Origin: Microseira wollei NIES-4236
GTDB taxonomy: Bacteria > Cyanobacteriota > Cyanobacteriia > Cyanobacteriales > Aerosakkonemataceae
Direction of reading: 5' to 3'
Assembly (NCBI RefSeq): GCF_020521235.1
Contig: NZ_BLAY01000087.1
Location: 1 to 42,039 of the forward strand
DNA: 42,039 nt
The notes below the pieces were generated by a model that worked only from the letters and a program-made list of their open reading frames with translations, ran no database searches and was not told the DNA's origin. Shown here piece after piece: positions 9,901 to 39,909 of the stretch (positions are counted from its first letter, which is position 1; each line of letters begins with the position of its first letter). The translations under genes were made by a program, and so were the position numbers.

Positions 9901-10747
9901 TGTCAATATTATTGAGTTGTTAGATGACTTGTTTCAACGGGCGGCGGATGCGGATGAACCGGAGGAAATGAATTTTATCAGAAAACACGTTCTGGGGATG
10001 CGCGAGCAAAATATCCCCAATCCCACCGCGCGTCTATTCTCGAACCCCGCTGGCGATTTTGGTTCGCTAGTAAATGAGCGAGTTACTGATGGAAATTGGG
10101 ATTCTGGAGAAGAGTTGGCGGATACTTGGGAAAGTCGCAATGCCTTCAGTTACGGCAGAAATGATAAAGGTCAATCTCGCAAGCAAGTCTTAAACCAGCT
10201 ATTGCAAAGTACTCGTCGCGTGGTGCAAGAAATTGATTCGGTTGAATATGGTTTAACCGATATTCAAGAATATTATGCCAATACGGGCGGTTTGAAAAAG
10301 GCGGCGGAGAAACAACAAGGGAAGAAAGTTAATGCTAGTTTTGTGGAAAGTTTCTCGAAAGATACAACGCCGCGCAATTTAGAAGATTTGCTCAGAATGG
10401 AATATCGCACTAAGTTATTAAATCCCAAATGGGCAGATGCAATGGCGAATCAAGGTAGCGGTGGTGCGTATGAAATTTCTCAACGCATGACGGCGTTAAT
10501 TGGGTGGGGCGGTACGGCTGATTTTACCGATAATTGGGTTTACGATCAAGCTGCGGATACTTATGCTTTAGATGCAGAAATGGCGAAGAAATTGCGCGAA
10601 GCAAATCCGGAAGCTTTTCGCAATATTGTCGGCAGAATGTTAGAAGCGCATGGACGGGGTTTCTGGGAAGCTGATGAGGAGAAGTTGCAGAAGTTGCGCG
10701 AATTGTATGAGTTGACAGATGAAGAATTGGAAGGTGTGACGATTTAA
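6989..10747 (+). CDS. Magnesium-chelatase subunit H / CobN family protein (ChlH paralog, 1252 aa)
   Basis: N-terminal and central blocks resemble ChlH/BchH (…ASLIFDYDQV…, LKYIPVQKVQDLRNWLIIYGYWNAGG, HFGMHGTVEWLPG). Size fits the CobN/ChlH family. An unusual Glu/Arg-rich segment EENEPRRREEREEERRRIGE lies at about aa 800. Start and stop are clean and a hairpin terminator follows. Confidence 0.75.
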   Translation: MKRIVLIAGFESFNADLYRKAAQLAASRCPELDVRVFSDKSLTTSPEVVADALVGADVFFASLIFDYDQVMWLRERVQHIPIRLVFESALELMSLTQIGAFKIGDKPKGMPKPVKFILDKFSNGKEEDKLAGYISFLKVGPKLLKYIPVQKVQDLRNWLIIYGYWNAGGTDNVASMFWTIAEKYLELKVGEIPPPVETPNMGLLHPEYQGYFESPQQYLEWYQKNNAIKPLVGQASRLSMGEIGGQDAQPTRPVIGILLYRKHVVTKQPYIHKLINYFEQAGLIPLPIFINGVEGHVAVRDWMTTKYETAQRQLGNIETPSLSNEAAQVDAIVSTIGFPLVGGPAGSMEAGRQIEIAKKILTAKNIPYIVAAPLLIQDIHSWTRQGIGGLQSVVLYALPELDGAIDTVPLGGLVGEDIYLIPERVKRLTGRLKNWIELRQKPASERKVAILLYGFPPGYGAVGTAALLNVPRSLLKLLQALKEQGYTIGELPEDGEELIRRVKAADEPQIRSKKEEPVIDSLLDANEYNTVNAKTLDKWLGYLLTTRIEKQWKSLTSSGIKTYGDEYHIGGIELGNIWIGVQPPLGIAGDPMRLMFERDMTPHPQYAAFYKWLQNEFKADAVVHFGMHGTVEWLPGSPLGNTGYSWSDILLGDIPNLYIYAANNPSESILAKRRGYGVLISHNVPPYGRAGLYKELVALRDLISEYREDPQKNYALKEAICKKIVDTGLDADCPFEGAKKLGIAFTTENVRMFSAHAFNDYLVKLYEYLQVLETRLFSSGLHTLGEPPTDEELASYFDAYFGEEENEPRRREEREEERRRIGELLGQNTDELTNLLRGLNGEYIPPAPGGDLLRDGAGVLPTGRNIHALDPYRMPSAGAYERGREIARKIIAQHLEEHGEYPETVAVMLWGLDAIKTKGESLGILLELVGAEPVKEGTGRIVRYELKSLEEVGHPRIDVLANLSGIFRDSFVNIIELLDDLFQRAADADEPEEMNFIRKHVLGMREQNIPNPTARLFSNPAGDFGSLVNERVTDGNWDSGEELADTWESRNAFSYGRNDKGQSRKQVLNQLLQSTRRVVQEIDSVEYGLTDIQEYYANTGGLKKAAEKQQGKKVNASFVESFSKDTTPRNLEDLLRMEYRTKLLNPKWADAMANQGSGGAYEISQRMTALIGWGGTADFTDNWVYDQAADTYALDAEMAKKLREANPEAFRNIVGRMLEAHGRGFWEADEEKLQKLRELYELTDEELEGVTI

Positions 10748-10751
10748 TCAG

Positions 10752-10792
10752 TAGGGTGCGTTAGCGCTAACGTAACGCACCATCTTTTTAAT
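10752..10792 (+). terminator. Rho-independent terminator after chelatase gene
   Basis: GGTGCGTTA-gcgctaacg-TAACGCACC stem-loop followed by ATCTTTTTA. Confidence 0.5.
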
Positions 10793-10831
10793 AGGGTGTT
10801 TGAAAAGCCCAAGTTGTTTATCCAAAACCTG

Positions 10832-10896
10832 GTAGGGGCACGGCATTATAAATATTTCGGGTTTGTCAACCAATGTTTCAGATGCCGTGCCCCTAC
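10832..10896. repeat. 65-bp hairpin repeat (GTAGGGGCACGGCAT …loop… ATGCCGTGCCCCTAC), family member 1
   Basis: 15-bp perfect terminal inverted repeats. Two more copies of identical length and a similar loop lie at 17546-17610 and 25019-25083. Confidence 0.6.
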
Positions 10897-11550
10897 GTTT
10901 CAAACAGGTTATAAGCTAAGAATGCTGAGTCAACCACATCCGAATTTCATTGTTAGTCATGCGCTTGAAATACGGAATGTTTTGCATCTCCAAACTCTTA
11001 GCTTTATTTAGGGCTATGGCAACAAGCTGGCGATGTGGTTGTGCATCAACTTTCACATCTTTTTCTTGCTGAGAAACCATATTTGCCAGTTCCAAACCAT
11101 GTGGATGGTCAAGCAGCTTGGTCAGCAATTCCAATGGATCTTGCATTTTACTTTGCCTCAGTAGAGTGAATAAAGTGAAAACAAAGCTTAACTTTCAAGG
11201 GCTGGTACTTCCTTAAAGCTAATCGCTAAGTAATATCAACGCTACAGTCAATTTGTTGCAACAGTCAAATACCAAAAAGAGCAATTTAACAGCATTTTTT
11301 TCTGAATATGCTGCTAAAATGCCCTGAGCAAAATTTTTCACCTTGTAACGCCCCATAACAGCTTAAAGCTGCTGCTTTCTAAGTACCAGTTAGAAAGTCA
11401 GGCATAGGGAGTTAAATTTAGTTCACTCTACTGACGGGGATTCAATCCCCTTACAGGGATTCAATTCGCTTACACTAATTCAATCCCTATCAGGGATTAT
11501 ATCTTATTCCCCCTGCGAATTTCCCAGGGGGTACTTGGGTTTTAATTACC

Positions 11551-26148: not shown

Positions 26149-28113
26149 CTAATTTCTCAATAACCGCAAACCGCTGAGGGTTACCAATACTGTAGAACCC
26201 TCGTGTCCGATGACACCGAAGGGGAGGGTGATATTACCGGCGAAGTTGGCGGCTAATAGCAGGACAATAAAACCGAGGGCGAAGGCGATATTCTGTTTGA
26301 CGATAACTTGAGAGCGACGACCTAGACGGATTGCCTGCTCTAATTTTTCCAGTCTATCTGCCATTAAGACGATATCGGCGGTTTCTAGGGCGATGTCGCT
26401 CCCCGCTGCACCCATTGCAATACCGACGGTAGCAGCAGCGAGGGCGGGTGCGTCGTTGACGCCGTCTCCTACCATGGCGACGGTTTTATATTGCTTTTGC
26501 AAGCGGCGAATGACGGATACTTTATCTTCGGGTAATAGTTCGGCGTAAACTTGGTCTACGTTGAGCTGTTGGGCGACGCTTTGTGCAGTACTGTTGTTAT
26601 CGCCGGTGAGCATGATAATTTGTTCGACGCCTAGCTGTTTCAAGCGTTGGATGGTTTGGGTAGCTGTGGGGCGGAGGGTGTCTGCAATCGCTATTATCCC
26701 CAAAACTTCCCCCGCTGCTTGTACCCAGACTACGGTTTTGCCTTCGGATTCTAATTTTTGGGTATTTGAAAGCAGGTGAGCAGGTGGGCGGGGGGGCAGG
26801 TGAGAAGAAGATGTAGAGCTTTCTTTTGCCGCGTTAGCTTTACCGACGGCGCAAGCAATTCCATCGACTTCGCCTGTAATCCCAAAACCAGGAAGCGCTT
26901 GCACGTTGGTAGCGGGTGGTAATTCTAAATTTCTGCCAAAGGCAGCTTGCACAATCGCTTGTCCAATCGGATGTTCCGAATAAGCTTCCAACGCTGCTGC
27001 TAACTGCAATACGCGATTTTCCTCCCCTCTGCTCCCCTGCTCAGACGAGGCGGGGATAATTTGCACAACTTGCGGTTGTCCTGTCGTGAGGGTGCCGGTT
27101 TTATCGAAAGCGATCGCTCTCACTCTGCCCATATTCTCTAACTGTGCGCCATTTTTGAATAAAATCCCCTGCCTCGCCCCGTTGGCAATTCCCGATAGCA
27201 GCGTGGGCATAATTGCTGCCATTAACGCACAGGGAGAGGCAACGACGAGGAAAATCAGCGCCCGATAAATCGTTGTTTCCCAATCCCATTGCCATAAGAA
27301 TGGTGGCAGAATTGCCAGCAGTATCCCAGTGAAGACGATTACTTTTGCATAACCCCGCTCAAATTGGGTCAGAAATTGCTGGGAGGGGGGTTCTTCTGTT
27401 TGAGCTTGCTGGACTAATTGGATAACGCGCTGGATTAAACTGCTAGTTGGGGGTTTGTGGAGGCGCAATGCGATCGCGCCATTGCCATTAATCGTCCCGC
27501 CAAATACTTCATCGCCGATTGTCTTTTCTACAGGTAGGGATTCGCCGGTAATCGAAGCTTGGTTAATCGTACTGTAGCCAGAGGCAATCGTACCGTCCGT
27601 GGGAATCAATTCTCCCGGTTTAACTAATACGATATCGCCGACTTTTAATTGCGCGATGGGAAGCACCCTTTCTTGTCCGTGCAGTATCACCCGCGCCGTA
27701 TCCGGTGTTAAACTCATGAGGCTGCGGATGCTGCGTTCGGTGCGTTTCATGGCATAGCCTTCGAGTGCGCCGCTGATGGCAAAAATTAAAATCAGCACCG
27801 CACCGTCAACTATTAGATAATATTCCCGGCGCCACAAACCCAATGCAGCAGCACCTAAAGCTGCCACAATCATTAGCAGGTCTACATCTAATTCTTTTTC
27901 TTCCAATAAGGTAGTCAGTCCAAGGCGGGCGCTTTCGTAACCGCCAATCACATAAGCTACAGGTAGAAGTATTAAAGCCAATCCAATCCAGCTAAAGTGG
28001 AGTGCTAGCCAACCCAGGATTAAGAATACACCGCAAATAACAGCGGCTAAAGCGTCTGGATGCGAGTTGAGTAGCTGTTGCAGTGGGCGGGTAGAGAAAG
28101 TATTTTGAGCCAT
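26149..28113 (-). CDS. coaT: P1B-4-type heavy-metal (Co2+/Zn2+-class) exporting P-type ATPase, CoaT-like
   Basis: DKTGTLT, GDGVNDAP and TGES motifs are present. The TM6 motif is SPC (ASPCAL) and TM8 has HEGST. There is no N-terminal HMA domain and the protein is ~650 aa, all hallmarks of the P1B-4 subgroup. It is divergent from a MerR-CbiC (CoaR-type) regulator gene. Start placed at the ATG for MAQNTF (28113); the track's TTG start at 28182 overlaps an STR. Confidence 0.75.
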   Translation of the reverse strand: MAQNTFSTRPLQQLLNSHPDALAAVICGVFLILGWLALHFSWIGLALILLPVAYVIGGYESARLGLTTLLEEKELDVDLLMIVAALGAAALGLWRREYYLIVDGAVLILIFAISGALEGYAMKRTERSIRSLMSLTPDTARVILHGQERVLPIAQLKVGDIVLVKPGELIPTDGTIASGYSTINQASITGESLPVEKTIGDEVFGGTINGNGAIALRLHKPPTSSLIQRVIQLVQQAQTEEPPSQQFLTQFERGYAKVIVFTGILLAILPPFLWQWDWETTIYRALIFLVVASPCALMAAIMPTLLSGIANGARQGILFKNGAQLENMGRVRAIAFDKTGTLTTGQPQVVQIIPASSEQGSRGEENRVLQLAAALEAYSEHPIGQAIVQAAFGRNLELPPATNVQALPGFGITGEVDGIACAVGKANAAKESSTSSSHLPPRPPAHLLSNTQKLESEGKTVVWVQAAGEVLGIIAIADTLRPTATQTIQRLKQLGVEQIIMLTGDNNSTAQSVAQQLNVDQVYAELLPEDKVSVIRRLQKQYKTVAMVGDGVNDAPALAAATVGIAMGAAGSDIALETADIVLMADRLEKLEQAIRLGRRSQVIVKQNIAFALGFIVLLLAANFAGNITLPFGVIGHEGSTVLVTLSGLRLLRN

Positions 28114-28208
28114 AACAGTGTTGGGAATGGGTAATGGGTCATGGGTAATTGGTAATTGGTCACGGAGCGTGGCGATCGCCAATTACCTATTACCAATTAC
28201 CAATTACC

Positions 28209-28251
28209 ACCCTAAACCTTGACATTAGTGTTAAAGTCAAGAGTGTATTAT
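28209..28251. promoter_or_regulatory. Divergent MerR-type operator/promoter. On the minus strand it reads TTGACT-N20-TAGGGT toward coaT. On the plus strand it reads TTGACA-N21-TATTAT toward the HMA gene. The two share the dyad CTTGAC-N12-GTCAAG
   Basis: Hexamers and spacing were counted directly. Spacers of 19-21 bp with a dyad between the -35 and -10 elements are the signature of MerR-family activated promoters. Confidence 0.45.
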
Positions 28252-28270
28252 CATTCAGGGTTATCGGAGT

Positions 28271-28465
28271 ATGGCACTCGAACTGAAAGTCCCGTCAATT
28301 GCCTGTACTGGATGCATTGACACGATTACTAAAGCGGTGATGGAACTTGACTCGTCTGCCAGCGTTAAGGGCGATGTGCAAGGGAAGTCCGTGTCGGTGG
28401 AAACAACTGCATCAGAAGAGGCGGTAAAAGAGGCAATTGTCAAAACGGGTCATACCGTAGCCTAA
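28271..28465 (+). CDS. Small heavy-metal-associated (HMA) domain protein, metallochaperone-like, with atypical CTGC metal site
   Basis: It is 64 aa. VPSIACTGCIDTITKAV places a CxxC motif in the first loop of a predicted beta-alpha-beta-beta-alpha-beta fold. It lies between coaT and coaR. Confidence 0.55.
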   Translation: MALELKVPSIACTGCIDTITKAVMELDSSASVKGDVQGKSVSVETTASEEAVKEAIVKTGHTVA

Positions 28466-28649
28466 TAGCTAATGGCTAATAGCTAATGGCTAATGGTAGA
28501 GGAGGAAAATATTGCCATGACCAATTAGCAATTAGCGATTAGCTATTGCAGGAGTGGGGAAGACTCTGGAAGAAATTACTTCTACTTCAAGAGTCTTCCT
28601 CATCTGCAATCTCAAATCTAAAATCTAAAATCTCAAATAATATTAGGCG

Positions 28650-29750
28650 ATGTCAGCAGGATATCTCACCATCAAACAACTTACAGAGGCAGTAGGCGGT
28701 GATATTACGCCCCGGATGGTGCGGCACTATCATCAAATAGGTTTGTTGCCATCTGCTGTGCGATCGCATTCTAACTACCGCCTCTATACCGAAGCGGACG
28801 TGCTGCGTTTGCGGCGGATTGTCGCCCTCAAACAACAAGGATTTCATCTATCGCACATTCACAAGTTGCTCCAAACCGAAACGGGCAACTCTGACGAATT
28901 AATGGCGCAACTGCAAAAACAATATCGCGCCATTGTGCAACAGCTGACAAATTTGCGGCAAACTGCATCGGCATTGGAAGGATTGCTAGGACGCGATCGC
29001 TCGTGTCAAATTATCCAAGCAGATGCGATCGCTCAACTCCGACTTTTGGAAGTGGAAACCCAAGATAGCATGGGACAGCTAGCCAAATTATGGGATAATT
29101 TGGACGCCGCCACTCACGCTCATCCCGAAAGTTTTGCGGAATCTTTGCAACAATTATTGCCCGATTTATCCGGGCGATCCGAAATAGAAATATATTTACT
29201 TTCCCAATTAGTTTTAGCTTGTGGGGACGTGAGTTTAATTCAGTTTGTCAGAGTGGGAGAGGGAGCGATCGCTTCTTCCCGCCACGCGCTCAAAACTAAT
29301 TGCCAAGTCGTCGCCGACGTTCCACCCGTCCTTGCAGCTTTAGACAAAACCAGATTAGCTCATCTCAAATGTCCCGTTGAAACCTTAATTAATGACCCCC
29401 ACATTAGTACTGCCGCCGAAGCAGAACGGGAATTTTGGCATCATCAACAATGGCAAGAAAAATTAGAGCAACTCACCCCTGGTTGTATTTTAGTTGTCGG
29501 ATATGCCCCATCGGTTTTAATGTCTGCTTGTGCCGCAATTGAACAAAAGCGATTGCAACCCGCTTTAATTATTGGGATGCCCATTGGTTTTAGTCACGCC
29601 CCTGCTGCGAAGCGAAGGTTAATCCGTTCCGGCGTGCCATTTATTACCACTGAAGGCACTTTAGGCGGTGGATTGTTAGCCGCAGTCGCCCTCAATGCTT
29701 TAGTTGAATCTTTAATTGAAAAGCCAGATTGTCACTGTTATTTGAGTTAA
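28650..29750 (+). CDS. coaR: MerR-family transcriptional regulator fused to precorrin-8X methylmutase (CbiC/CobH)-like domain; CoaR-type cobalt sensor
   Basis: N-terminal LTIKQLTEAVGGDITPRMVRHYHQIGLLPS…YRLYTEADVLRLRRIVALKQQGFHLSHI is a MerR HTH with a coiled coil. The C-terminal 200 aa has CbiC-like blocks (VVGYAPSVLMSA…IIGMPIGFSHAPAAKRRL…FITTEGTLGGGLLAAVALNAL). This fusion architecture is that of Synechocystis CoaR. Confidence 0.75.
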   Translation: MSAGYLTIKQLTEAVGGDITPRMVRHYHQIGLLPSAVRSHSNYRLYTEADVLRLRRIVALKQQGFHLSHIHKLLQTETGNSDELMAQLQKQYRAIVQQLTNLRQTASALEGLLGRDRSCQIIQADAIAQLRLLEVETQDSMGQLAKLWDNLDAATHAHPESFAESLQQLLPDLSGRSEIEIYLLSQLVLACGDVSLIQFVRVGEGAIASSRHALKTNCQVVADVPPVLAALDKTRLAHLKCPVETLINDPHISTAAEAEREFWHHQQWQEKLEQLTPGCILVVGYAPSVLMSACAAIEQKRLQPALIIGMPIGFSHAPAAKRRLIRSGVPFITTEGTLGGGLLAAVALNALVESLIEKPDCHCYLS

Positions 29751-30154: not shown

Positions 30155-32965
30155 ATGAAAAAGACCACCCAAACCATGCGCGTTAAACCTCTGAAAGAAA
30201 TCTTTAGAAAAACCCCTTTAAAACTGCCGCTAAGAACGGTTTTGATTGTGCCTTTTGTGCTGCAAATCGTTGGTGCTGTGGGACTGGTGGGATATCTATC
30301 ATTTAAAAATGGACAGCAAGCAGTCAACGATTTGGCGAATCAGTTGATGGGGGAAACGAGCGATCGCATTGGGCAAAAACTCAACAATTATCTAGCAGTA
30401 CCGCGCACGATCGATCGGATAAATGGGAATGCGATCGCGCTCAATCAATTAAATCTGCAAGATCCAAACAACTTAAATCCCAACTTTTGGCAGCAAAGAT
30501 TTTTATTCGATGAAGTTAACATATCTGCGATTTATTTTGGTAGCGCGGAGGGAGATTTTACCGGACTAGGACTTCAAAGCGACAACACCTGGCAAATTAG
30601 TAGAGTTGGTCGAGTTACCAACAACAAATTTCACAGCTACGCTGCAGACAATTGGGGAAATCCTACAAAATTACTAAACGTGGGGAAGCATTACGATCCC
30701 AGAATTAGACCTTGGTATCAAAAAGCAGTAAAAGCAGGCAAGTCAGTCTGGAGCGATATTTATCTCGATTTTAAAGAACCAAGACTGAAGATTACTTTAG
30801 CTCAACCAATCTACAAATCAATTACAAATCAACCTACTTCCTTGCGGGGAGTCATCGGAGTTGATTTTGTCCTCACGCATATCGGCAAGTTTCTCAAAGG
30901 TTTGAAAATCGGTAAGTCTGGGACAACATTTATCATCGAGAGAACCGGGTTAATTGTTGCATCTTCCACAGAAGAAGAACCTTTTTTGCGCGATGAAGGT
31001 GGTAAAGTAAAAGCCAGAATTGCAGCTAGAGAAAGTCGCGTACCGTTGATTCAAGCTACGGCAAAGTACTTGACGCAACGCCACAGCAATTTAGCAGAAA
31101 TTAACAGCGACGAACAATTCATAGCGACGATTGCGGGAAAACCCAAATTTATCCAGATCGCACCTCTGAAAGATAGTCTGGGTATTGACTGGTTAATTGT
31201 TGTGGTAATTCCAGAAGCAGACTTTATGGAGCAAATTAACGCCAATACCCGCACCACTATTTTACTATGTATTGCCGCATTGTTGCTAGCGATAATTGTC
31301 GGTATTTTGACCGCTAGTTGGGTTACACAGCCAATTTTACGCTTGAATGCTGCCGCTAAAAATATCGCCAAAGGAGACTGGGATAAAACAGTAGAAATTA
31401 ACCGCGGCGATGAAGTGGGAGAACTTGCCAATTCATTTAACACCATGGCGCACCAGTTGCAAGAATCTTTTGAAACCTTAGAGCAAAAAGTTAAAGCAAG
31501 AACGGCTGAGTTAGAAATTGCCAAAGAAAAAGCCGAAGTTGCCAACCAAGCTAAAAGCACATTTCTTGCCAATATGAGCCACGAATTGCGCTCTCCTCTA
31601 AATGCCATTATCGGCTTTTCTCAACTGATGATACGCAGCCAAAGTTTGGCTAAAGACCAGCTAGAAAACGTCAGCATTATTAACCGCAGCGGCGAACATT
31701 TACTCACCTTAATTAACAACGTATTAGACTTATCGAAAATCGAAGCTGGACGGACAACCCTCAACGAAAAAAACTTTGATTTAATCCGCCTGCTTTCCGA
31801 TATAGAAGATATGTTCCGCCTCAAAGCAGAAGACAAAGGATTGCAGTTATTAGTCGAACATACCCCCGATGTGCCGCGATACATCCGCACTGATGAAGTC
31901 AAATTGCGACAAGTTTTAATTAACCTGATTAGTAACGCTATCAAATTTACTGAAGAAGGCGGCGTATCGGTGAGAGTAGGACTTGTTCGTAGTAAGCACT
32001 TCAGTGCAAGCTCAGGGACCCAAGTCCCTACTACGAACTTATCTTTTGAAGTGGAAGATACTGGTTTTGGGATTGCCCCGGAAGAATTAGATAGTCTTTT
32101 TGAAGCCTTTGTGCAAACAGAAACGGGAAAACAAGCTCAAGAAGGGACGGGTTTAGGATTGCCCATTAGCCGCAAATTCGTGGAGTTAATGGGGGGTGAA
32201 ATAACGGTGAGTTCCACAGTGGGAGTTGGAACAATTTTCAAATTCGATATTCAGGTTAGCCTTGCTGATGCGGTCGAAGTTGAAAGCCAAAAAACAACAA
32301 GGCGAGTGATTGCTCTTGAGCCAAATCAACCTCAATATCGGATTTTGATTGTGGATGACAAATCGCTTAATCGCCAATTGCTGATTAAATTACTCAATCC
32401 CCTCGGTTTTGAACTGAAAGAAGCGAGTAATGGCAAAGAAGCGATCGCAATTTGGGACGAATGGTCACCGCACTTAATTTGGATGGATATGCGAATGCCG
32501 GTAATGGATGGCTACGAGGCGACCAAACATATAAAAAGCACGACTAAAGGTCAAGCGACTGCTGTTATTGCTTTGACTGCGAGCGTTTTAGAGGAAGAAA
32601 GAGCCGTTGTGCTATCAGCGGGTTGCGATGATTTTCTGCGAAAACCCTTCCGGGAAGCAGATATTTTTGAGTTAATGCACAAACATATCGGCGTGGATTA
32701 TATCTATGAAGATTCAACGGTAGAAAAATCGGTTAAAGTGAGAGAAGATGAAGAAAAACTACTGACACGAGAGGCAATGGAGGCACTGCCGACGGAATGG
32801 GTGAATAACCTGAAACAAGCTATAGAGAATGTGGATATGAGAGAGATCGCAAGCATTTTAGACCAAATTCAGACCGAAAATGCACCCCTGGCTCTTGCCA
32901 TTCAATGTTGTCTAGATAACTTCGACTACGACAAGATTTTGGCTTTAATATCAGAAGACCGCTAG
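30155..32965 (+). CDS. Hybrid sensor histidine kinase: TM – periplasmic Cache-like sensor – TM – HAMP – HisKA – HATPase_c – REC – conserved C-terminal tail
   Basis: H-box FLANMSHELRSPLNAI. N/G-boxes LINLISNAIKFT, DTGFGI and GTGLGLPIS. REC IVDDKSLNRQLL…LIWMDMRMPVMDGYE…VIALTA…CDDFLRKPF. Two hydrophobic segments flank a ~300-aa extracytoplasmic region. Paralog of the next gene. Confidence 0.8.
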   Translation: MKKTTQTMRVKPLKEIFRKTPLKLPLRTVLIVPFVLQIVGAVGLVGYLSFKNGQQAVNDLANQLMGETSDRIGQKLNNYLAVPRTIDRINGNAIALNQLNLQDPNNLNPNFWQQRFLFDEVNISAIYFGSAEGDFTGLGLQSDNTWQISRVGRVTNNKFHSYAADNWGNPTKLLNVGKHYDPRIRPWYQKAVKAGKSVWSDIYLDFKEPRLKITLAQPIYKSITNQPTSLRGVIGVDFVLTHIGKFLKGLKIGKSGTTFIIERTGLIVASSTEEEPFLRDEGGKVKARIAARESRVPLIQATAKYLTQRHSNLAEINSDEQFIATIAGKPKFIQIAPLKDSLGIDWLIVVVIPEADFMEQINANTRTTILLCIAALLLAIIVGILTASWVTQPILRLNAAAKNIAKGDWDKTVEINRGDEVGELANSFNTMAHQLQESFETLEQKVKARTAELEIAKEKAEVANQAKSTFLANMSHELRSPLNAIIGFSQLMIRSQSLAKDQLENVSIINRSGEHLLTLINNVLDLSKIEAGRTTLNEKNFDLIRLLSDIEDMFRLKAEDKGLQLLVEHTPDVPRYIRTDEVKLRQVLINLISNAIKFTEEGGVSVRVGLVRSKHFSASSGTQVPTTNLSFEVEDTGFGIAPEELDSLFEAFVQTETGKQAQEGTGLGLPISRKFVELMGGEITVSSTVGVGTIFKFDIQVSLADAVEVESQKTTRRVIALEPNQPQYRILIVDDKSLNRQLLIKLLNPLGFELKEASNGKEAIAIWDEWSPHLIWMDMRMPVMDGYEATKHIKSTTKGQATAVIALTASVLEEERAVVLSAGCDDFLRKPFREADIFELMHKHIGVDYIYEDSTVEKSVKVREDEEKLLTREAMEALPTEWVNNLKQAIENVDMREIASILDQIQTENAPLALAIQCCLDNFDYDKILALISEDR

Positions 32966-33162
32966 CTAACGTAAGTTGCTAGTTATAAACAAGGGCGTTG
33001 CTAATTGCTAATTGCTAATTGCTAATTGCTAATATAGGATTTTTACTGACATTAGCCATTAGCCATTAGCCATTAGCCGCTCTTTGGGAGATAACTAGCA
33101 ACTTGGGTTAGCTATCTAAACGCTAACCGCAACTCCCAACTCTCGACCTTTGGAAATTATCT

Positions 33163-36102
33163 ATGTTGGTTAAAGTGCTTAATTCTATCCTTGCTCAAGT
33201 AAGCAGACTACCCCTACGAACGGTTCTCGTTGTCCCTTTTGTCCTGCAAACCGTCACGGCGGTGGGACTGGTGGGTTATCTCTCGTTTAGAAACGGACAG
33301 CAAGCAGTCAATGACCTGGCAGAACGTTTGATGCGCGAAGTGAGTTCCCGCATTCTCCAGTCCCTCCAGAGTTACACGGCAACGCCCCGCTTAGTTAATC
33401 AAATTAACACCAATGCCATTCGTCTGGGTCAAATCAATTTACAAGATTCTCCCCAGCTAGAACGTCACCTCTGGCATCAAATTCAAGCATTCAATTCAGT
33501 TACCTACATCCAATTCGCCACCGAACAAAAAGACTTTATTGGTGTCCACCGTTTAGACGATGGCAAATTCACCCTGACAATCTCCGGTGAATCTACAAAG
33601 TATGTTTACACGACTTATGCCCTTGACCGTCAAGGAAATCCCACTCAATTGTTGAAGCGTAGACCAAACTACGATCCTCGCATTCGACCTTGGTATAAAG
33701 CCCCCGTCAAAGCATCTGGAAATGCATGGACTGAAATTTACGCTTATTTTGACTTTTCCAAACTGGCGATTACTGAAGGAGTGCCTCTGTACGATCGCCA
33801 AGGTAAGCTACTGGGAGTAACTGCGGTGGATTTGTCTTTATCCCAAATCAGCGAATTTTTGCGTACCTTGGAAGTAGGTTCCACGGGTCAAACCTATATC
33901 GTGGAACGCAATGGGATGCTGGTAGCTAGTTCCACATCCGAACAGCCATTTATCAAGGAAAAAGCAAAACCTCAGCGTCTTTTGGCAGTGAATAGCAAAG
34001 AGCCGTTAATTCGCTCGACTGCCGAGTATTTACAGCAGAAGTACGGTAATTTAAATCAAATTACGGAAAATATTCAGCTAAAATTTGACATCGAAGGTAA
34101 GCATCACTGGGTTCAAATTACACCCTTTTCCGATAAGTTTGGTCTAGACTGGTTGATTGTGGTAGTCGTGCCGGAATCCGACTTTATGGCACAAATTCAT
34201 GCCAACACCCGCACCACCATTGTTTTATGTTTGGCAGCACTGTTTGTATCCACGTTACTAGGTTGGTTGACCTCGCGCTGGATTAGCCAACCAATTCGCC
34301 GTCTCAGTCAAGGGAGTCAGAATATTGCTAGCGGCGAACTCGACCAACAAGTAGACGTGCAAGGCACGCAAGAGCTAACAGTTTTAGCCCAGTCTTTTAA
34401 CCAAATGGCGGAACAGTTGCGCATCGCTTTTGCTGCTCTAAAAAAAACGAAGGCAGAGTTAGAAATTCGGGTCGAACAACGCACTGCCGAACTCAAAGAA
34501 TCCCAAGATCAATTGCAACAACAAGCCCAAGATTTAGAAGAACGAGTGCGACAACGCACCGCCGAATTGTTAGAAGCAAAAGAAGCGGCAGAAGCAGCTG
34601 ACGAAGCCAAGAGTACTTTTTTAGCCACAATGAGCCACGAATTGCGGACGCCCCTCAACGCCATTCTCGGCTTCGCCCAATTGATGAAATGCGATTCATT
34701 GCTTTCTCCCTCCTACCGGGAAAATCTCAACATCATCGCTCGCAGTGGGGAACATCTGCTGGCATTAATTAACGACATTCTCGATATGTCCAAAATCGAG
34801 TCTGGTCGGATGTTGCTAATGGAAAACTCTTTTGACTTTTATCTGTTGTTAGATAGCGTCGAGCAAATGTTCCAACTCCAGGCAAGCCAAAAAGGCTTAA
34901 CGCTACAGTTTGAACGCAGTCCGGAAGTTCCCCAATATGTAAATACCGACGAGCGAAAATTGCGCCAAATTTTGATTAACTTGCTTGGCAATGGGATCAA
35001 GTTCACCCAGCGAGGCGGCGTGACAGTCAGAGTGCTAATGGCTAATGGCTCATTGCTAATAGGAAAAGAAAAAGATAATTCCAATTTACCCTCGTTCCCA
35101 GGCTCTGCCAGGGAAGGCAAATTACCCTCGTTCCCAGGCTCTGCCAGGGAAGGCAATTACCAATTGCATTTTGAAATTGAAGACACTGGGTGTGGCATTC
35201 CTAATGAAGAGATTGAAGATTTATTTGAACCGTTTGTGCAGAGTAAAACCAATCGGGGGTTTCAAGAAGGCACGGGTTTAGGTTTGCCGATTAGCCGTGC
35301 TTTTGTGCGCTTGATGGGGGGTGACCTCACTTTAGTTCGCACGGCAGTGGGTGAGGGTACGACGTTTGCGTTTGACATTCAAGTGACTCTGGCGGCGGCG
35401 GCGGAGGTGGAGGTGACTGTACCCCTGCGTCGCGTCATTGGACTGGAAGTAGAACAACCGACTTATCGCTTGCTGGTGGTGGAGGATGGCTGGGAAAACC
35501 GCCAACTGCTGATTAAGTTACTGCAACCTTTGGGTTTTGAGGTGAAAGAAGCGGTGAATGGACTTCAAGCGCTTGAGGTTTTGCAGAGTTGGAAACCGCA
35601 TTTAATTTGGATGGATTTGCGAATGCCGGTAATGGACGGGTACGAAGCAACGCAACAAATTCGCGCCAAACTGGAGGGGGAAGCGATGGCAATTATTGCG
35701 TTGACTGCCCACGTGTTTAAAGAGGAACGCGCGGCGATTTTGTCGGCTGGTTTTGATGATTGCGTCAGCAAGCCGTTTCGGGAAGCCGAATTGTTTGCCG
35801 CGATGAGTCAGCATTTAGGGGTGCGTTACATTTATGAGGAACCTACGACAAGCGAGGCTTCTAAGGAGGAAAATGTATTGAGTGGGGAAGACTTCGCATC
35901 TTTACCCGCCGAATGGCTGAAAAAGCTAGAAGAGGCGATTTTGATGGGAGATATGAAGTTAATGGAGGATGCGATCGGGCAAATCCGCACCCAGGACGAT
36001 GCCATCGCCCTAGCCATCGCCCATTGTCTCGATAACTTCGAGTACGATAAGATTTTGCACTTAATCGAAGCTGCCAATCAACTCTTAACAACTAACCCCT
36101 AG
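33163..36102 (+). CDS. Hybrid sensor histidine kinase (paralog of previous; Cache-like sensor – HAMP – extended coiled coil – HisKA – HATPase_c with insertion – REC)
   Basis: Same domain order. The N-terminal 60 aa are nearly identical to the upstream paralog (LPLRTVLVVPFVLQ.V.AVGLVGYLSFRNGQQAVNDLA). The HATPase_c domain carries an in-frame insertion at 35031-35157. Confidence 0.8.
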   Translation: MLVKVLNSILAQVSRLPLRTVLVVPFVLQTVTAVGLVGYLSFRNGQQAVNDLAERLMREVSSRILQSLQSYTATPRLVNQINTNAIRLGQINLQDSPQLERHLWHQIQAFNSVTYIQFATEQKDFIGVHRLDDGKFTLTISGESTKYVYTTYALDRQGNPTQLLKRRPNYDPRIRPWYKAPVKASGNAWTEIYAYFDFSKLAITEGVPLYDRQGKLLGVTAVDLSLSQISEFLRTLEVGSTGQTYIVERNGMLVASSTSEQPFIKEKAKPQRLLAVNSKEPLIRSTAEYLQQKYGNLNQITENIQLKFDIEGKHHWVQITPFSDKFGLDWLIVVVVPESDFMAQIHANTRTTIVLCLAALFVSTLLGWLTSRWISQPIRRLSQGSQNIASGELDQQVDVQGTQELTVLAQSFNQMAEQLRIAFAALKKTKAELEIRVEQRTAELKESQDQLQQQAQDLEERVRQRTAELLEAKEAAEAADEAKSTFLATMSHELRTPLNAILGFAQLMKCDSLLSPSYRENLNIIARSGEHLLALINDILDMSKIESGRMLLMENSFDFYLLLDSVEQMFQLQASQKGLTLQFERSPEVPQYVNTDERKLRQILINLLGNGIKFTQRGGVTVRVLMANGSLLIGKEKDNSNLPSFPGSAREGKLPSFPGSAREGNYQLHFEIEDTGCGIPNEEIEDLFEPFVQSKTNRGFQEGTGLGLPISRAFVRLMGGDLTLVRTAVGEGTTFAFDIQVTLAAAAEVEVTVPLRRVIGLEVEQPTYRLLVVEDGWENRQLLIKLLQPLGFEVKEAVNGLQALEVLQSWKPHLIWMDLRMPVMDGYEATQQIRAKLEGEAMAIIALTAHVFKEERAAILSAGFDDCVSKPFREAELFAAMSQHLGVRYIYEEPTTSEASKEENVLSGEDFASLPAEWLKKLEEAILMGDMKLMEDAIGQIRTQDDAIALAIAHCLDNFEYDKILHLIEAANQLLTTNP
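35086..35157 (+). repeat. In-frame 36-bp tandem duplication (TTACCCTCGTTCCCAGGCTCTGCCAGGGAAGGCAAA x2, encoding LPSFPGSAREGK/N) preceded by heptamer-STR-derived codons (GCTAATGGCTAATGGCTCATTGCTAATAGG) inside the kinase ATP-binding domain
   Basis: The reading frame was checked across the segment and stays open. The unit contains a TTCCCAGGC…GCCAGGGAA palindrome of the same type as intergenic hairpin repeats, e.g. TTACCAGGCTCCGGCCTGGTAA at 41860. Confidence 0.7.
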
Positions 36103-36116
36103 CACCCGATAAACCC

Positions 36117-37556
36117 ATGCAAACTGACAAATTTAAAGGCAACATTTTAGTCGTTGATGACACCCCAGCCAATCTGCACCTGTTAATCGATATTTTGAGC
36201 AAACAAGGCTACGAAGTTCGCCCCGCCCCCAACGGTAAATTTGCCCTATCCGCTGCTAAGGGAATGCCACCCGATTTAATTTTACTAGACATTATGATGC
36301 CGGGAATGAACGGTTACGAAGTCTGCGAACAACTCAAAATTGATGAGCGAACCAAAGACATCCCGGTTATTTTTGTTAGCGCGATCAACGAAGTGCTAGA
36401 TAAAGTCAAAGCTTTTGCCATTGGTGGAGTTGATTATATCACAAAACCCTTTCAAGTAGAAGAAGTTTTAGCCAGGGTGGCAGCTCACTTAGCAATTCGC
36501 AACCTGCAAAGAAGCTTGCAAAAGAAAAATGAGGAATTAACCACAACCTTGCACCAACTCACAGCCACCCAAAATCAATTGATTCAATCAGAAAAAATGG
36601 CAGCCTTGGGACAATTAATTGCGGGCATTGCCCATGAAATTAATACCCCACTGGGTGCGATTCGCTCATCGATCAACAATATTGCTGGGTTTTTCGCCGA
36701 AAACTTGCAGGCATTACCCGAATTTTTTCAAGGACTCTCTGCTGAAAATCAACAGGATTTCTTTGCCTTAATGGAAAAGTCAAGCCAACAAACAACCTCC
36801 TTCTCTAGTAAAGAAAAACGCCAAATCAGAAAAGTTTTGCAGCAGCAGCTAGAAGAAATGGGAATAGAAGACGCCGATAACATTGCCAGTACTCTAGTCA
36901 CTTTTGGCATTTACGACGATATTCAACCCTTTTTACGCTTACTGCAAGACCCAGACCGGGACAAGCTGCTCAAAACAGCCTATGACTTAGCTAGTTTTCA
37001 GAAAAGTACCAAAACTATTATGACGGCTACAGACCGGGCTGCCAAAATCGTGTTTGCCCTCAAAAGTTATGCCCGCTACGACAATTTTGAAGAAAAAGTA
37101 CAGGCGAATATCGGTGAAGGAATTGAAACAGTATTAACCCTCTACCAGAATCAACTCAAACAGGGGGTAGAAGTCATCAGAAACTATCAAGAATTACCGC
37201 CGATTTGGTGCTACCCCGATGAACTGAATCAAGTTTGGACAAACTTAATTCACAATGCCGTGCAAGCGATGAGTAATCGGGGAACCTTAAAAATTGATGT
37301 GACTCAGCAAGAAAGATTTATCAAAGTCCAGATTACCGATAGTGGCTGTGGGATACCCGAAGAAATTATGCCCCGAATATTTGAGCCATTCTTTACAACA
37401 AAACCCCCTGGAGAAGGCAGCGGCTTGGGATTGGATATTGTCAAAAAAATCGTTGAAAAACATCAGGGAAAAATTGCAGTTTCCTCCCTGACGGGTCAAA
37501 CAACATTTACCGTGTTTTTACCAATAAATTTCAACGAGAATCCTAGCCTTGCTTAA
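36117..37556 (+). CDS. Response-regulator receiver fused to histidine kinase (REC–HisKA–HATPase_c)
   Basis: REC is ILVVDDTPANL…LILLDIMMPGMNGYEV…VIFVSA…DYITKPF. H-box is LIAGIAHEINTPLGAI. ATPase is NLIHNAVQAM, DSGCGIP and GSGLGLDIVKKIVEKHQGKI. Confidence 0.8.
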   Translation: MQTDKFKGNILVVDDTPANLHLLIDILSKQGYEVRPAPNGKFALSAAKGMPPDLILLDIMMPGMNGYEVCEQLKIDERTKDIPVIFVSAINEVLDKVKAFAIGGVDYITKPFQVEEVLARVAAHLAIRNLQRSLQKKNEELTTTLHQLTATQNQLIQSEKMAALGQLIAGIAHEINTPLGAIRSSINNIAGFFAENLQALPEFFQGLSAENQQDFFALMEKSSQQTTSFSSKEKRQIRKVLQQQLEEMGIEDADNIASTLVTFGIYDDIQPFLRLLQDPDRDKLLKTAYDLASFQKSTKTIMTATDRAAKIVFALKSYARYDNFEEKVQANIGEGIETVLTLYQNQLKQGVEVIRNYQELPPIWCYPDELNQVWTNLIHNAVQAMSNRGTLKIDVTQQERFIKVQITDSGCGIPEEIMPRIFEPFFTTKPPGEGSGLGLDIVKKIVEKHQGKIAVSSLTGQTTFTVFLPINFNENPSLA

Positions 37557-37612
37557 GCCAGGGATTTGATGCTAGAGTCTTAGCTATATCCATTTGAAAC
37601 AGGAAGCCAACA

Positions 37613-38008
37613 ATGCCTAAGTCAGCCATTATATGCGTAGATGATGAGGTCACTGTCTTAGAAAGCCTTGAAATCGAACTGCAAAAAGCATTTAAGAATC
37701 AATATCTGTATGAATTTGCTGAAAGTGCTGATGAGGCTTTAGAGGTAATTGAGGAATTAATCGAAGATAGCGTAAACATTGTAGTGATTGTATCCGATTG
37801 GTTGATGCCGGGAATGAAAGGCGATGAACTGTTAATTTTAATTCATCATAGATTTCCAGAGGTGACTACTATTTTATTAACTGGACAAGCAGATAGAGAA
37901 GCAGTGGAACGTGCTATCAACGAAGCGAAGATCCATGCTTACTTGACCAAACCCTGGAATACTAAAGAATTAATTGAAACCATTCGATCTGGACTCTCAA
38001 AATCATGA
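37613..38008 (+). CDS. Single-domain response regulator (CheY-like receiver)
   Basis: IICVDDEVTVLESL…VVIVSDWLMPGMKGDELL…TILLTGQAD…YLTKPW. Good RBS AGGAAG. The stop overlaps the next start (ATGA). Confidence 0.75.
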   Translation: MPKSAIICVDDEVTVLESLEIELQKAFKNQYLYEFAESADEALEVIEELIEDSVNIVVIVSDWLMPGMKGDELLILIHHRFPEVTTILLTGQADREAVERAINEAKIHAYLTKPWNTKELIETIRSGLSKS

Positions 38009-39909
38009 AAAAGCCCGCAATTATCTGCGTAGATGATGAACTAACTATCCTGGAAAGTCTGGAACGAGAGCTGCGAATATCTTTCGCGGGTAAATATACG
38101 ATAGAAACAGCAGAAGGAGGGGAAGAAGCTTTAGAAATATTGGATGAATTGCTAGAAAATAAATATGAAGTTCCTTTGGTCATCTCCGATCAGATTATGC
38201 CCGGTATGAAAGGAGATGAGTTATTAAAAATTGTTCGGCAAAAATCACCTAAAACCGTGACAATAATGCTCACGGGTCAAGCCAATATAGAAGCAGTTAT
38301 CAATGCAATTAACCAGGCAAATTTATATCGTTATATTGCCAAGCCCTGGGAAGCAGAAGACTTAAAATTAACCGTAGAAAAAGCAATTGATAGCTATTTT
38401 CAGGAGAAAAAGCTAGCCGAACAAAATGCAAAACTTCAGGAAATGAATCAATTGCTGGCGCGATTAAACAGCGAACAAGCCGCGCTAATTGCCCAACTGC
38501 AAGAAAATGAAAATCGCTTGAAACAGTTTTTAGAAGCGATGCCAATCGGCGTTGCTGTTTTGGATACACAAGGCAAACCTTACTACATTAATCGGCAGGC
38601 AAAAGAATTATTGGGTAAAGGAGTTGTGCCTGGTATAACCTTGGAGCAATTATCAGAGGTTTATCAAGTTTATCAAGCAGGTAAAGACCAGCAGTACCCA
38701 ACTGAAAAGTTGCCGATTATCCAGGCGTTGAATGGCAAAAGCGTCACCGCTGACGATCTAGAAGTTCGCCAAGGTGACAAGATTATACCCCTAGAAGTTT
38801 ACGCAACGCCTATTTATGATTCCCAGTCAGAAATTGCCTATGCAATTAACACGCTAAAAGACATTACGGAACGGAAACAAGCAGAAGAAGACCGGGCAAA
38901 ATTTATTTCAGAACTGTTTGAACTCAATTGCAATTTGGAACTGGCGCTGTACGCTGAATCGGAATTAGCCAATGCGGCTAAACGGTTTGTACCGAATGAA
39001 TTTCTTTCCTTGTTGGGACACCAAAGCTTGGTGGATGTGAAATTAGGCGATGCGGTGCAGCAAGAAATGTCGGTGCTGTTTTCCGATATTCGCAACTTCA
39101 CGACGCTTTCTGAAAGCATGACTCCCCAGGATAATTTTAAATTTATTAATTCTTATCTATCGACGATGGAACCTGCGATCGCTCAAAATCATGGGTTTAT
39201 TGATAAATATATTGGCGATGGAATTATGGCACTGTTTAGCGGCGGTGCGGATGATGCTGTCAAAGCAGGAATTAACATGTTACAACGCCTCGAAGATTAT
39301 AATCAAAATCGCATCAGAGCGGGCTATGCACCCATTCGCATCGGCATTGGAATTAATACCGGGTCTTTGATGCTGGGAACTGTTGGGGGACAAAGACGGA
39401 TGGATGGGACGGTGATTAGCGATGCGGTGAATTTAGCCTCGCGGGTGGAAAATTTGACAAAAGCTTATCAAGCGCCAATGTTAATTACTCACCAAACATT
39501 TGTACAATTGAATCAATCCCATCAATATGCAATTCGCCTGATCGACCGCGTCCAAGTTAAAGGAAAATCAGAATTAGTGACTGTTTATGAAGTGTTTGAA
39601 ACCGAACGTCCAGATATTAAAGAGGGCAAGTTAGCAACTTTACCAATATTTTTAGAAGCTTTGTCTAACTATAGTTCAGGAAAATTGAGAGAAGCGGAAC
39701 AACTGTTTGCAGATTGTTTGCGCCAAAACCCGCTGGATAAAGTCGTGCAAATTTATCTAAAACGCTGTCAAGAACCTGGTACGGTAACGCCAATTTACTC
39801 TGAATCTAACTTGAGGGGAGTTTGTGGAAATGGACGGAGCGATTCTGCTTCGGAGACGCTGCGCGAACGCAACGAGCAAGTTATATCAAATCCCGTTGCA
39901 TCGGAATGA
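38005..39909 (+). CDS. REC – PAS – class III adenylate/guanylate cyclase (CHD) protein
   Basis: N-terminal receiver (IICVDDELTILESL…LVISDQIMPGMKGDELL…IMLTGQAN…YIAKPW). A central PAS-like region follows. The C-terminal cyclase homology domain is VLFSDIRNFTTLSESMTPQDNFKFINSYLSTMEPAIAQNHGFIDKYIGDGIMALF…RIGIGINTGSLMLGTVGG…DGTVISDAVNLASRVENLTK. Confidence 0.8.
   Translation: MKKPAIICVDDELTILESLERELRISFAGKYTIETAEGGEEALEILDELLENKYEVPLVISDQIMPGMKGDELLKIVRQKSPKTVTIMLTGQANIEAVINAINQANLYRYIAKPWEAEDLKLTVEKAIDSYFQEKKLAEQNAKLQEMNQLLARLNSEQAALIAQLQENENRLKQFLEAMPIGVAVLDTQGKPYYINRQAKELLGKGVVPGITLEQLSEVYQVYQAGKDQQYPTEKLPIIQALNGKSVTADDLEVRQGDKIIPLEVYATPIYDSQSEIAYAINTLKDITERKQAEEDRAKFISELFELNCNLELALYAESELANAAKRFVPNEFLSLLGHQSLVDVKLGDAVQQEMSVLFSDIRNFTTLSESMTPQDNFKFINSYLSTMEPAIAQNHGFIDKYIGDGIMALFSGGADDAVKAGINMLQRLEDYNQNRIRAGYAPIRIGIGINTGSLMLGTVGGQRRMDGTVISDAVNLASRVENLTKAYQAPMLITHQTFVQLNQSHQYAIRLIDRVQVKGKSELVTVYEVFETERPDIKEGKLATLPIFLEALSNYSSGKLREAEQLFADCLRQNPLDKVVQIYLKRCQEPGTVTPIYSESNLRGVCGNGRSDSASETLRERNEQVISNPVASE

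Follow-up and report, generated by a model that had tools for sequence, protein, structure and literature searches.

The closest described system to the locus reported here is the CoaR (sll0794)/CoaT (slr0797) pair of Synechocystis sp. PCC 6803, in which a regulator gene and a pump gene diverge from each other. The regulator joins a MerR domain to a CbiC/CobH-like domain and ends in a Cys-His-Cys motif, and the pump, a P1B-4 ATPase, lacks a metal-binding domain at its N-terminus. The coaT promoter (PcoaT) is inducible by Co and Zn, depends on CoaR and has served as a genetic tool (PMC4788461). In the field of bacterial metal selectivity the pair is a textbook example, and the question attached to it is how CoaR, the weakest cobalt binder of the Synechocystis sensors, responds selectively; a second question is whether P1B-4 pumps, having no metal-binding domains, ever use chaperones. 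Here we analyzed a stretch of 42,039 nucleotides from the cyanobacterium Microseira wollei NIES-4236 (the window, along which all coordinates are counted unless a comparison locus, coded L001 to L096, is named) and describe its coaT-coaR locus, where a small gene of the Atx1 metallochaperone type is placed between the putative operator and the putative coaR.

Other known systems provide the background for the separate parts of this locus. The copper chaperone ScAtx1 of Synechocystis (ssr2857; structures 1sb6 and 2xmt) serves the HMA-bearing P1B-1 pumps CtaA and PacS, and a link with coaRT is not described for it (PMC4284471). Chaperones of this type bind Cu(I) and exchange it with the HMA domains of such pumps. 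The P1B-4 pumps are defined by SPC together with HEGxT, of which the second motif reads HEG(S/G)T (PMC8880997; PMC7689651). The group includes CoaT, CtpD, CzcP and sCoaT, and its members transport Co(II), or else Zn, Cd or Fe, outward. They are without classical metal-binding domains, no chaperone is known for them, and the function of their MB' platform is unexplained (PMC8880997). In the merR-merT region of Tn501/Tn21, in zntR/zntA and in cueR/copA, a dyad is placed in an over-long promoter spacer and the regulator unit diverges from, and overlaps, the operator; the regulators act by under-winding the promoter (PMC7689651).

By its sequence the Microseira locus is the known cyanobacterial CoaR/CoaT pair with a conserved operator, and its sole unusual point is the interposed Atx1-type gene. 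The novelty is one of position, found in Microseira and a few close relatives, and it amounts to a minor variant. All three open reading frames that an earlier note on this DNA had claimed are present: 26149..28182 on the minus strand, which holds coaT, and 28271..28465 and 28650..29750 on the plus strand, which are the gene for a 64-residue HMA protein and, after it, coaR. The earlier note had described the regulator as divergent. This needs correction: coaR by itself is not divergent from coaT but lies 3' of the HMA gene on one strand with it, so that HMA and coaR are jointly divergent from the pump gene. The locus differs from that of Synechocystis in that coaR has lost the first place on the divergent side to another gene, and from the merR-, zntR- and cueR-type systems in that a chaperone gene stands ahead of the regulator gene in the divergent unit.

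The coaT gene (26149..28113, minus strand) encodes a P1B-4 heavy-metal P-type ATPase of 654 amino acids. Its Pfam domains are E1-E2_ATPase and Hydrolase, with no HMA domain, and it matches the NCBIfam model ATPase-IB_hvy at 8.5e-181. The closest solved structure is sCoaT of Sulfitobacter sp. NAS14-1 (7qbz; 9e-127), the structural archetype of the P1B-4 class, behind which ZntA and CopA rank. Numbered from the ATG at 28113, the protein has a GG kink at 57, as in the MB' region of sCoaT, SPC at 293 (within ASPCAL), DKTGT at 337 and HEGST at 637. The SPC motif in M4, where it replaces CPC, and the HEGST motif in M6 align with those of sCoaT. The first hydrophobic helix begins after about 20 residues, and this N-terminus is without a classical HMA domain, as it is in sCoaT. 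SPC, HEGST and the missing N-terminal metal-binding domain, from which the earlier note had argued for a P1B-4 pump, were all found, and sCoaT is the best solved relative; the coaT product shows every P1B-4 feature that can be tested from a sequence. It differs from sCoaT in belonging to another phylum and to another kind of regulation, and in having a chaperone-family gene as immediate neighbour where sCoaT has no known chaperone. A start at TTG 28182 was considered and rejected: the 23 additional codons are translated heptamer repeats, and the orthologues share the ATG at 28113 and what follows it.

The regulator (366 amino acids; 28650..29750, plus strand) matches MerR_1 (1.3e-14) and CbiC (2.1e-46) in Pfam, which bears out the fusion of MerR with a CbiC-like domain that had been proposed for it as the CoaR architecture. 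Over its C-terminal 215 residues the protein matches the crystal structure of a CoaR tetrapyrrole-binding domain (8x33/9ipl) at 3e-95, and true CbiC/CobH enzymes at 1e-13 to 1e-18; the relation of this domain to CbiC, named in the earlier note as the point on which its proposal could fail, is therefore upheld by profile search. The sequence ends in PDCHCYLS, and C119, C361, H362 and C363 are invariant across 24 CoaR orthologues from different genera. In Synechocystis CoaR the reported cobalt ligands are C121, in the linker region, and C363/C365 (PMC11615248), and these align with C119/C361/C363 here. With its Pfam domains, structure match and invariant ligands, the protein is a predicted CoaR orthologue. 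As such it would be a Co(II) sensor of the MerR family, in which a tetrapyrrole-binding domain of CbiC/CobH type is followed at the C-terminus by Cys361-His362-Cys363.

Between the divergent genes lies the 22-bp dyad TTGACATTAGTGTTAAAGTCAA (28219..28240), included in the longer form CTTGAC-N12-GTCAAG at 28218..28241. It is unique in the window, where 0.00-0.04 matches are expected by chance (0.04 with one mismatch allowed). For the comparison of operators and HMA genes, 80 genomic loci encoding close relatives of CoaR were fetched, and a 22-bp palindrome was found directly beside coaT in nearly every one of these that has coaT within reach. The 54 distinct operator instances come from cyanobacterial loci and always adjoin coaT. 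Their consensus, the CoaR box, is TTGACATTAA-TG-TTAATGTCAA with the flank CTAAACC, and as a by-product the whole string, CTAAACC included, may be used for genome annotation and for the design of inducible promoters. A full-text literature search for the operator sequence found nothing relevant.

In all 54 instances a -10 element TAGnnT stands on the coaT strand 4 bp past the dyad, the outer half-site serves as -35 and the spacer is 20 bp; the search pattern required the TAG and not the final T, which is nonetheless present 54 times out of 54. In the window the -35 is TTGACT (28240..28235, minus strand), which is the right arm of the operator, and the -10 is TAGGGT (28214..28209, minus strand). 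The 32-bp stretch from -35 to -10 is identical at 28 of 32 positions to PcoaT of Synechocystis, for which the sequence was taken from supplementary data of Englund et al. 2016 (PMC5114575); there the -10 is TAGGCT, in the same place, and the form TAGGnT and the 20-bp spacer are shared by the two promoters. The minus-strand promoter TTGACT-N20-TAGGGT for coaT, and the claim that the dyad sits in an over-long spacer of MerR type, were both made in the earlier note and both stand. That the dyad is the CoaR operator inside a 20-bp MerR-type coaT promoter is well supported by this conservation. A consensus scan of 28050..28720 for canonical sigma-70 promoters (16-18 bp spacers) and for intrinsic terminators found none; the lack of such promoters is as expected for MerR-type spacing. 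Several Nostoc loci carry a mirror-image TTGACA-N20-TATAAT on the side of the operator away from coaT.

The small gene between operator and coaR (28271..28465, plus strand) encodes a protein of 64 amino acids which is entered in GenBank as GET40316.1, "heavy-metal-associated domain-containing protein", and matches the Pfam family PF00403 HMA (E = 1.4e-9). Among solved structures its best sequence match is ScAtx1 (1sb6; 8.9e-11, about 40% identity), which is likewise 64 residues long; the match covers the full length, and Cys12, Cys15 and His61 fall at the same positions. The AlphaFold2 model (predicted local distance difference test score 85) has strands and helices in the HMA order and superimposes on ScAtx1 2xmt, of beta-alpha-beta-beta-alpha-beta fold, with a template modelling score of 0.93 and a root-mean-square deviation of 0.7 A. 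In an exhaustive HMMER search many proteins of 62-67 amino acids were recovered at 45-60% identity, with the pattern VPS(I/M)(A/V)CxxC...GH(T/E)V; in a word-indexed family search, those matches with a named source among the best 120 listed were all cyanobacterial but one. Across 19 family members including ScAtx1 both cysteines are invariant and His61 is nearly so; as in cyanobacterial Atx1, the CxxC belongs to loop 1/helix 1 and His61 to loop 5. The metal site has no clade-specific change and is indistinguishable from that of other Atx1 proteins. Pairwise ratios of nonsynonymous to synonymous substitution rates (dN/dS) among seven HMA orthologues are 0.07-0.21, with one near-identical pair at 0.30, and the low values indicate that this short reading frame is a real gene under purifying selection.

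The protein had been called atypical for its CTGC site. The description does not hold: Cys12-Thr-Gly-Cys15 is an ordinary CxxC, the preceding VPSIAC is normal in cyanobacterial Atx1 proteins, and by sequence and fold the protein is a standard Atx1 resembling ScAtx1, with the Cys/Cys/His triad conserved. We conclude that it is an Atx1-family metallochaperone, as predicted from its sequence and model. What separates it from ScAtx1 is its setting, since it is encoded behind a cobalt-sensor operator and beside a P1B-4 pump which has no HMA domain to dock with.

The HMA gene was also described as an extra component of the system, and its distribution agrees with this. Using tblastn and the family hidden Markov model on six-frame translations, we found it in one of the 79 other genomic coaR loci, a locus whose HMA and CoaR are each 96-97% identical to those of the window; the gene was not found by either method near coaR in the remaining 78. 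The gene is thus ruled out as a general feature of coaRT loci. With the metagenome scan for loci of the HMA clade, which added only two clade members, the arrangement coaT-operator-HMA (and coaR, where the contig reaches it) is present in about six lineages, namely the window, L001, L002/L095, L082, L085/L086/L096 and L094, with HMA identities of 80-97%. In the other genomes coaT and coaR are directly divergent or are parted by unrelated inserts. The gap between them is an insertion hotspot in Nostocales (L003-L080), where the commonest insert, in about eight of the listed loci, is a gene for a 372-amino-acid AAA-type ATPase followed by one for a protein of about 160-196 amino acids; Uma2-family nucleases, toxin-antitoxin-like pairs, a transposase and a 520-amino-acid membrane protein occur there as well.

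The closest outgroup homologues of the small gene, at 61-63% identity, are stand-alone genes of Oscillatoria princeps, Kamptonema formosum and Gloeothece verrucosa with no metal genes nearby, and those of Oscillatoria princeps and Kamptonema formosum share an ABC-transporter/Uma2 context, in which they stand behind an ABC-transporter operon. Two decayed lineages (L083/L084 and L087; 75-79% HMA identity) have kept the HMA gene intact but have no coaT. In L083 (238..1651) coaR is a frame-broken remnant of about 50 codons after the HMA gene, the operator is half-eroded, and the HMA gene has a gene for a MerR-TipAS regulator on its upstream side; in L087 (1000..1285) the operator is degenerate, with one inserted base.

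The earlier note had proposed a plus-strand promoter TTGACA-N21-TATTAT for the HMA gene. The string is present (TTGACA at 28219..28224 and the candidate -10 TATTAT at 28246..28251, 21 bp apart), but the -10 is not conserved, reading TATTTT, TAACCG, TAAATC or TAATTT in the orthologous HMA loci. We know of no precedent for a 21-bp spacer among MerR promoters. The claim of a shared operator thus has only the geometry behind it: the ATG of HMA lies 30-37 nucleotides from the dyad in every HMA locus, and 30 in the window, so that any HMA promoter must overlap the operator. A bidirectional promoter is not proven by this.

Another possible promoter lies inside the operator itself. In the compact loci of other genomes coaR starts 4-25 nucleotides from the dyad, and in L039 its ATG is 4 nucleotides after it, so that a -10 element would have to lie inside the dyad; this suggests that the coaR mRNA of L039 may be leaderless. 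The operator is also asymmetric. With coaT on the left, its centre (28229..28230 in the window) is TG and not CA in 53 of the 54 instances, and the right, coaR-side arm is the better conserved one. We infer that the asymmetry may reflect an extended -10, TGnTAA(A/T)GT, facing coaR (in the window the candidate is TGtTAAAGT at 28229..28237, plus strand, facing HMA and coaR), and the divergent unit would then be autoregulated by occupancy of the operator, like merR.

HMA and coaR are on the same strand in all cases, and no terminator-like site lies between them in the window. In L094 the coaR start follows the HMA stop after only 30 nucleotides, a spacing that implies an operon. Together these features imply that HMA and coaR form one predicted transcription unit with HMA as its first cistron. 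An operator-like dyad with one mismatch, CTTGACTCGTCTGCCAGCGTTAAG, is present within the HMA coding sequence (28346..28369, plus strand), as found by the dyad scan. It is an exact TTGAC-N12-GTCAA, in the same codons ((L/V)-D-S-S-A-S-V-K) and with the spacing of the CoaR box, in L083/84/87, L085/86/96 and L094 (positions 1249 in L083, 1402 in L085, 850 in L094 and 1463 in L096). The internal dyad may have arisen by chance codon usage or may serve CoaR as a second site; the second possibility was set aside as not significant, since the exact form occurs in three of about five independent lineages but needs only three synonymous positions.

The best explanation of the locus, and one which we consider reasonably probable on the sequence evidence, is a canonical CoaR/CoaT cobalt-efflux switch that has captured a generic Atx1 gene. 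The mechanism of the switch is borrowed from work on Synechocystis and rests here on orthology and on the identity of the operator. A CoaR dimer would sit on the 22-bp dyad within the 20-bp spacer between TTGACT and TAGGGT. On binding of Co(II) at Cys119 and the C-terminal Cys-His-Cys, CoaR would under-wind the promoter, and RNA polymerase would then transcribe coaT, whose product would export Co(II), and probably Zn(II), from the cytosol. In the Microseira lineage an Atx1-family gene may have been captured between the operator and coaR, by which it would become the first cistron of a divergent atx1-like/coaR unit, with a promoter overlapping the CoaR operator. The small protein is most likely an Atx1-type soft-metal chaperone or buffer. 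It would bind Cu(I), and also Zn(II), through Cys12, Cys15 and His61 and would buffer the metal or pass it on, sparing adventitious thiol sites. Its expression would probably be tied to the occupancy of the operator by CoaR, either as merR-like autoregulation or as induction by Co. The placement of this gene in the Microseira clade may be regarded as a small natural experiment on the selectivity of PcoaT and on the tolerance of Co, Zn and Cu with and without the HMA gene.

Several points weigh against parts of this explanation. Read-through from HMA into coaR could be weakened by the two hairpins of the spacer, and coaR might then be served by a promoter of its own. The genomes of the decayed L083 and L087 might carry another copy of coaRT elsewhere. 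The persistence of the arrangement in about six lineages, with synonymous divergence (dS) of up to about 1.4, could reflect selection for a link with CoaR/CoaT and not inertia. Lastly, a second, housekeeping atx1 in M. wollei would mean that the gene described here is a dedicated paralogue, and a specialised role would become likelier.

Such a specialised role is the most novel of the alternatives, and we regard it as unlikely. The small protein would then be a working part of the cobalt system, either as the first soluble P1B-4 metallochaperone, docking at MB', or as a sensor-side gatekeeper of metal for CoaR, with its transcription set by the abutting operator.

It is improbable that the adjacency has no meaning at all and that the gene is a housekeeping atx1 for copper pumps of the PacS/CtaA type encoded elsewhere, transcribed from its own constitutive promoter independently of CoaR. 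The membership of the Atx1 family and the unremarkable metal site agree with this, and so do the persistence of HMA without coaRT and the nature of the coaT-coaR gap, a hotspot in which genes as unrelated as AAA ATPases, Uma2 and toxin-antitoxin pairs have been inserted. No second Microseira Atx1 occurs among the best 120 family matches beyond this gene's own cluster, which is a weak indication in the same direction. If the HMA gene is merely a relocated housekeeping atx1, the locus is ordinary. However, with 30 nucleotides between dyad and ATG, any promoter would overlap DNA which a MerR-type protein occupies whether metal-bound or not, so that full independence of CoaR is hard to reach, and the tight HMA-coaR junction of L094 implies shared transcription.

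A service to the sensor is likewise improbable. Here the Atx1-like protein, co-translated with CoaR, would keep Cu(I) and Zn(II) off its cysteine-rich site or would give CoaR privileged access to its effector. The operon with coaR, with its 30-nucleotide gap in L094, fits this idea, and so does what is known of the sensor: of the Synechocystis sensors CoaR binds Co(II) most weakly, its affinity is higher for Cu(I) and Zn(II), which can trigger it in vitro, and its selectivity for cobalt has been ascribed to "access" and not to affinity (PMC4192464; PMC7689651). Mutants of atx1 also show phenotypes of copper mis-metalation (PMC4192464). Against it, CoaR works without such a neighbour in most cyanobacteria, Synechocystis among them, and the HMA gene outlives the decay of coaR in L083.

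The least probable reading is the partnership of pump and chaperone which the earlier note had implied, where the small HMA protein would be a dedicated chaperone giving Co(II) or Zn(II) to the MB'/entry site of CoaT in place of the missing N-terminal domain, both being co-induced from a bidirectional CoaR promoter. In about six lineages the HMA gene does adjoin coaT and diverge from it across a single operator, the string TTGACA-N21-TATTAT exists on its side, the mirror-image element of Nostoc makes bidirectional activation conceivable, and CoaT keeps the GG-kinked MB' platform, whose function is unexplained in the P1B-4 pumps, a class with no known chaperone (PMC8880997). This is set against the lack of the HMA gene in 78 of the 79 other coaR loci, from which CoaT generally needs no such protein, and against the N21 promoter, which is not conserved; and because the HMA gene survives the loss of coaT and coaR, the outgroup homologues are stand-alone and the standard Cys/Cys/His site of Atx1 is unchanged in the clade, the partnership is weakened and a CoaT-dedicated cobalt chaperone appears unlikely. 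Atx1 of Synechocystis reportedly showed no interaction with CoaT in two-hybrid tests.

A further difference from the Synechocystis locus is the presence of hairpin elements with heptamer repeats and the HIP1 (highly iterated palindrome 1) sequence in the coaT leader and in the HMA-coaR spacer. The leader element (28143..28210, minus strand) is a heptamer-repeat hairpin of the short tandemly repeated repetitive (STRR) type, with the HIP1 palindrome GCGATCGC at 28172..28179 and a folding energy of -38.8 kcal/mol (z = -5.7). It adds about 80 nucleotides to the distance between operator and coaT start as compared with most genomes; elsewhere the ATG of coaT is about 35-40 nucleotides from the operator flank. 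Two hairpins, one of heptamer repeats and one with a perfect 14-bp stem, fill the HMA-coaR spacer (28460..28609, plus strand; -75 kcal/mol, z = -7.5), and as no T-run follows them they are not a canonical terminator. The heptamers are tandem repeats of the types CCAATTA and TAGCTAA. Different, unrelated hairpin elements occur at the same places in the orthologous loci. A search of the coaT leader and the spacers for riboswitches and other known RNAs gave only sub-threshold hairpin look-alikes.

In one comparison locus, L079 of Phormidesmis priestleyi BC1401, another P1B ATPase (8612..11102, minus strand), with 36% identity to CoaT, is encoded about 5 kb downstream of coaR. Just upstream of it there is a strong match to the Atx1 profile, truncated by the edge of the locus, which is either the N-terminal HMA domain of that pump or a separate gene.

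The surroundings of the Microseira locus are of other functions. No further metal gene, and no P1B-1 pump, was found among its neighbours in the window, which encode COP23, a trypsin-like protease, ABA4-like and DUF1287 proteins, histidine kinases and a cyclase. The signalling genes lie 3' of coaR (30155..39909) and comprise two Cache-HAMP hybrid histidine kinases, a response-regulator/kinase and a response-regulator-PAS-adenylate/guanylate cyclase. The cyclase gene of L094 follows coaR at about 500 bp, so that the kinase genes were either inserted in Microseira or deleted in L094.

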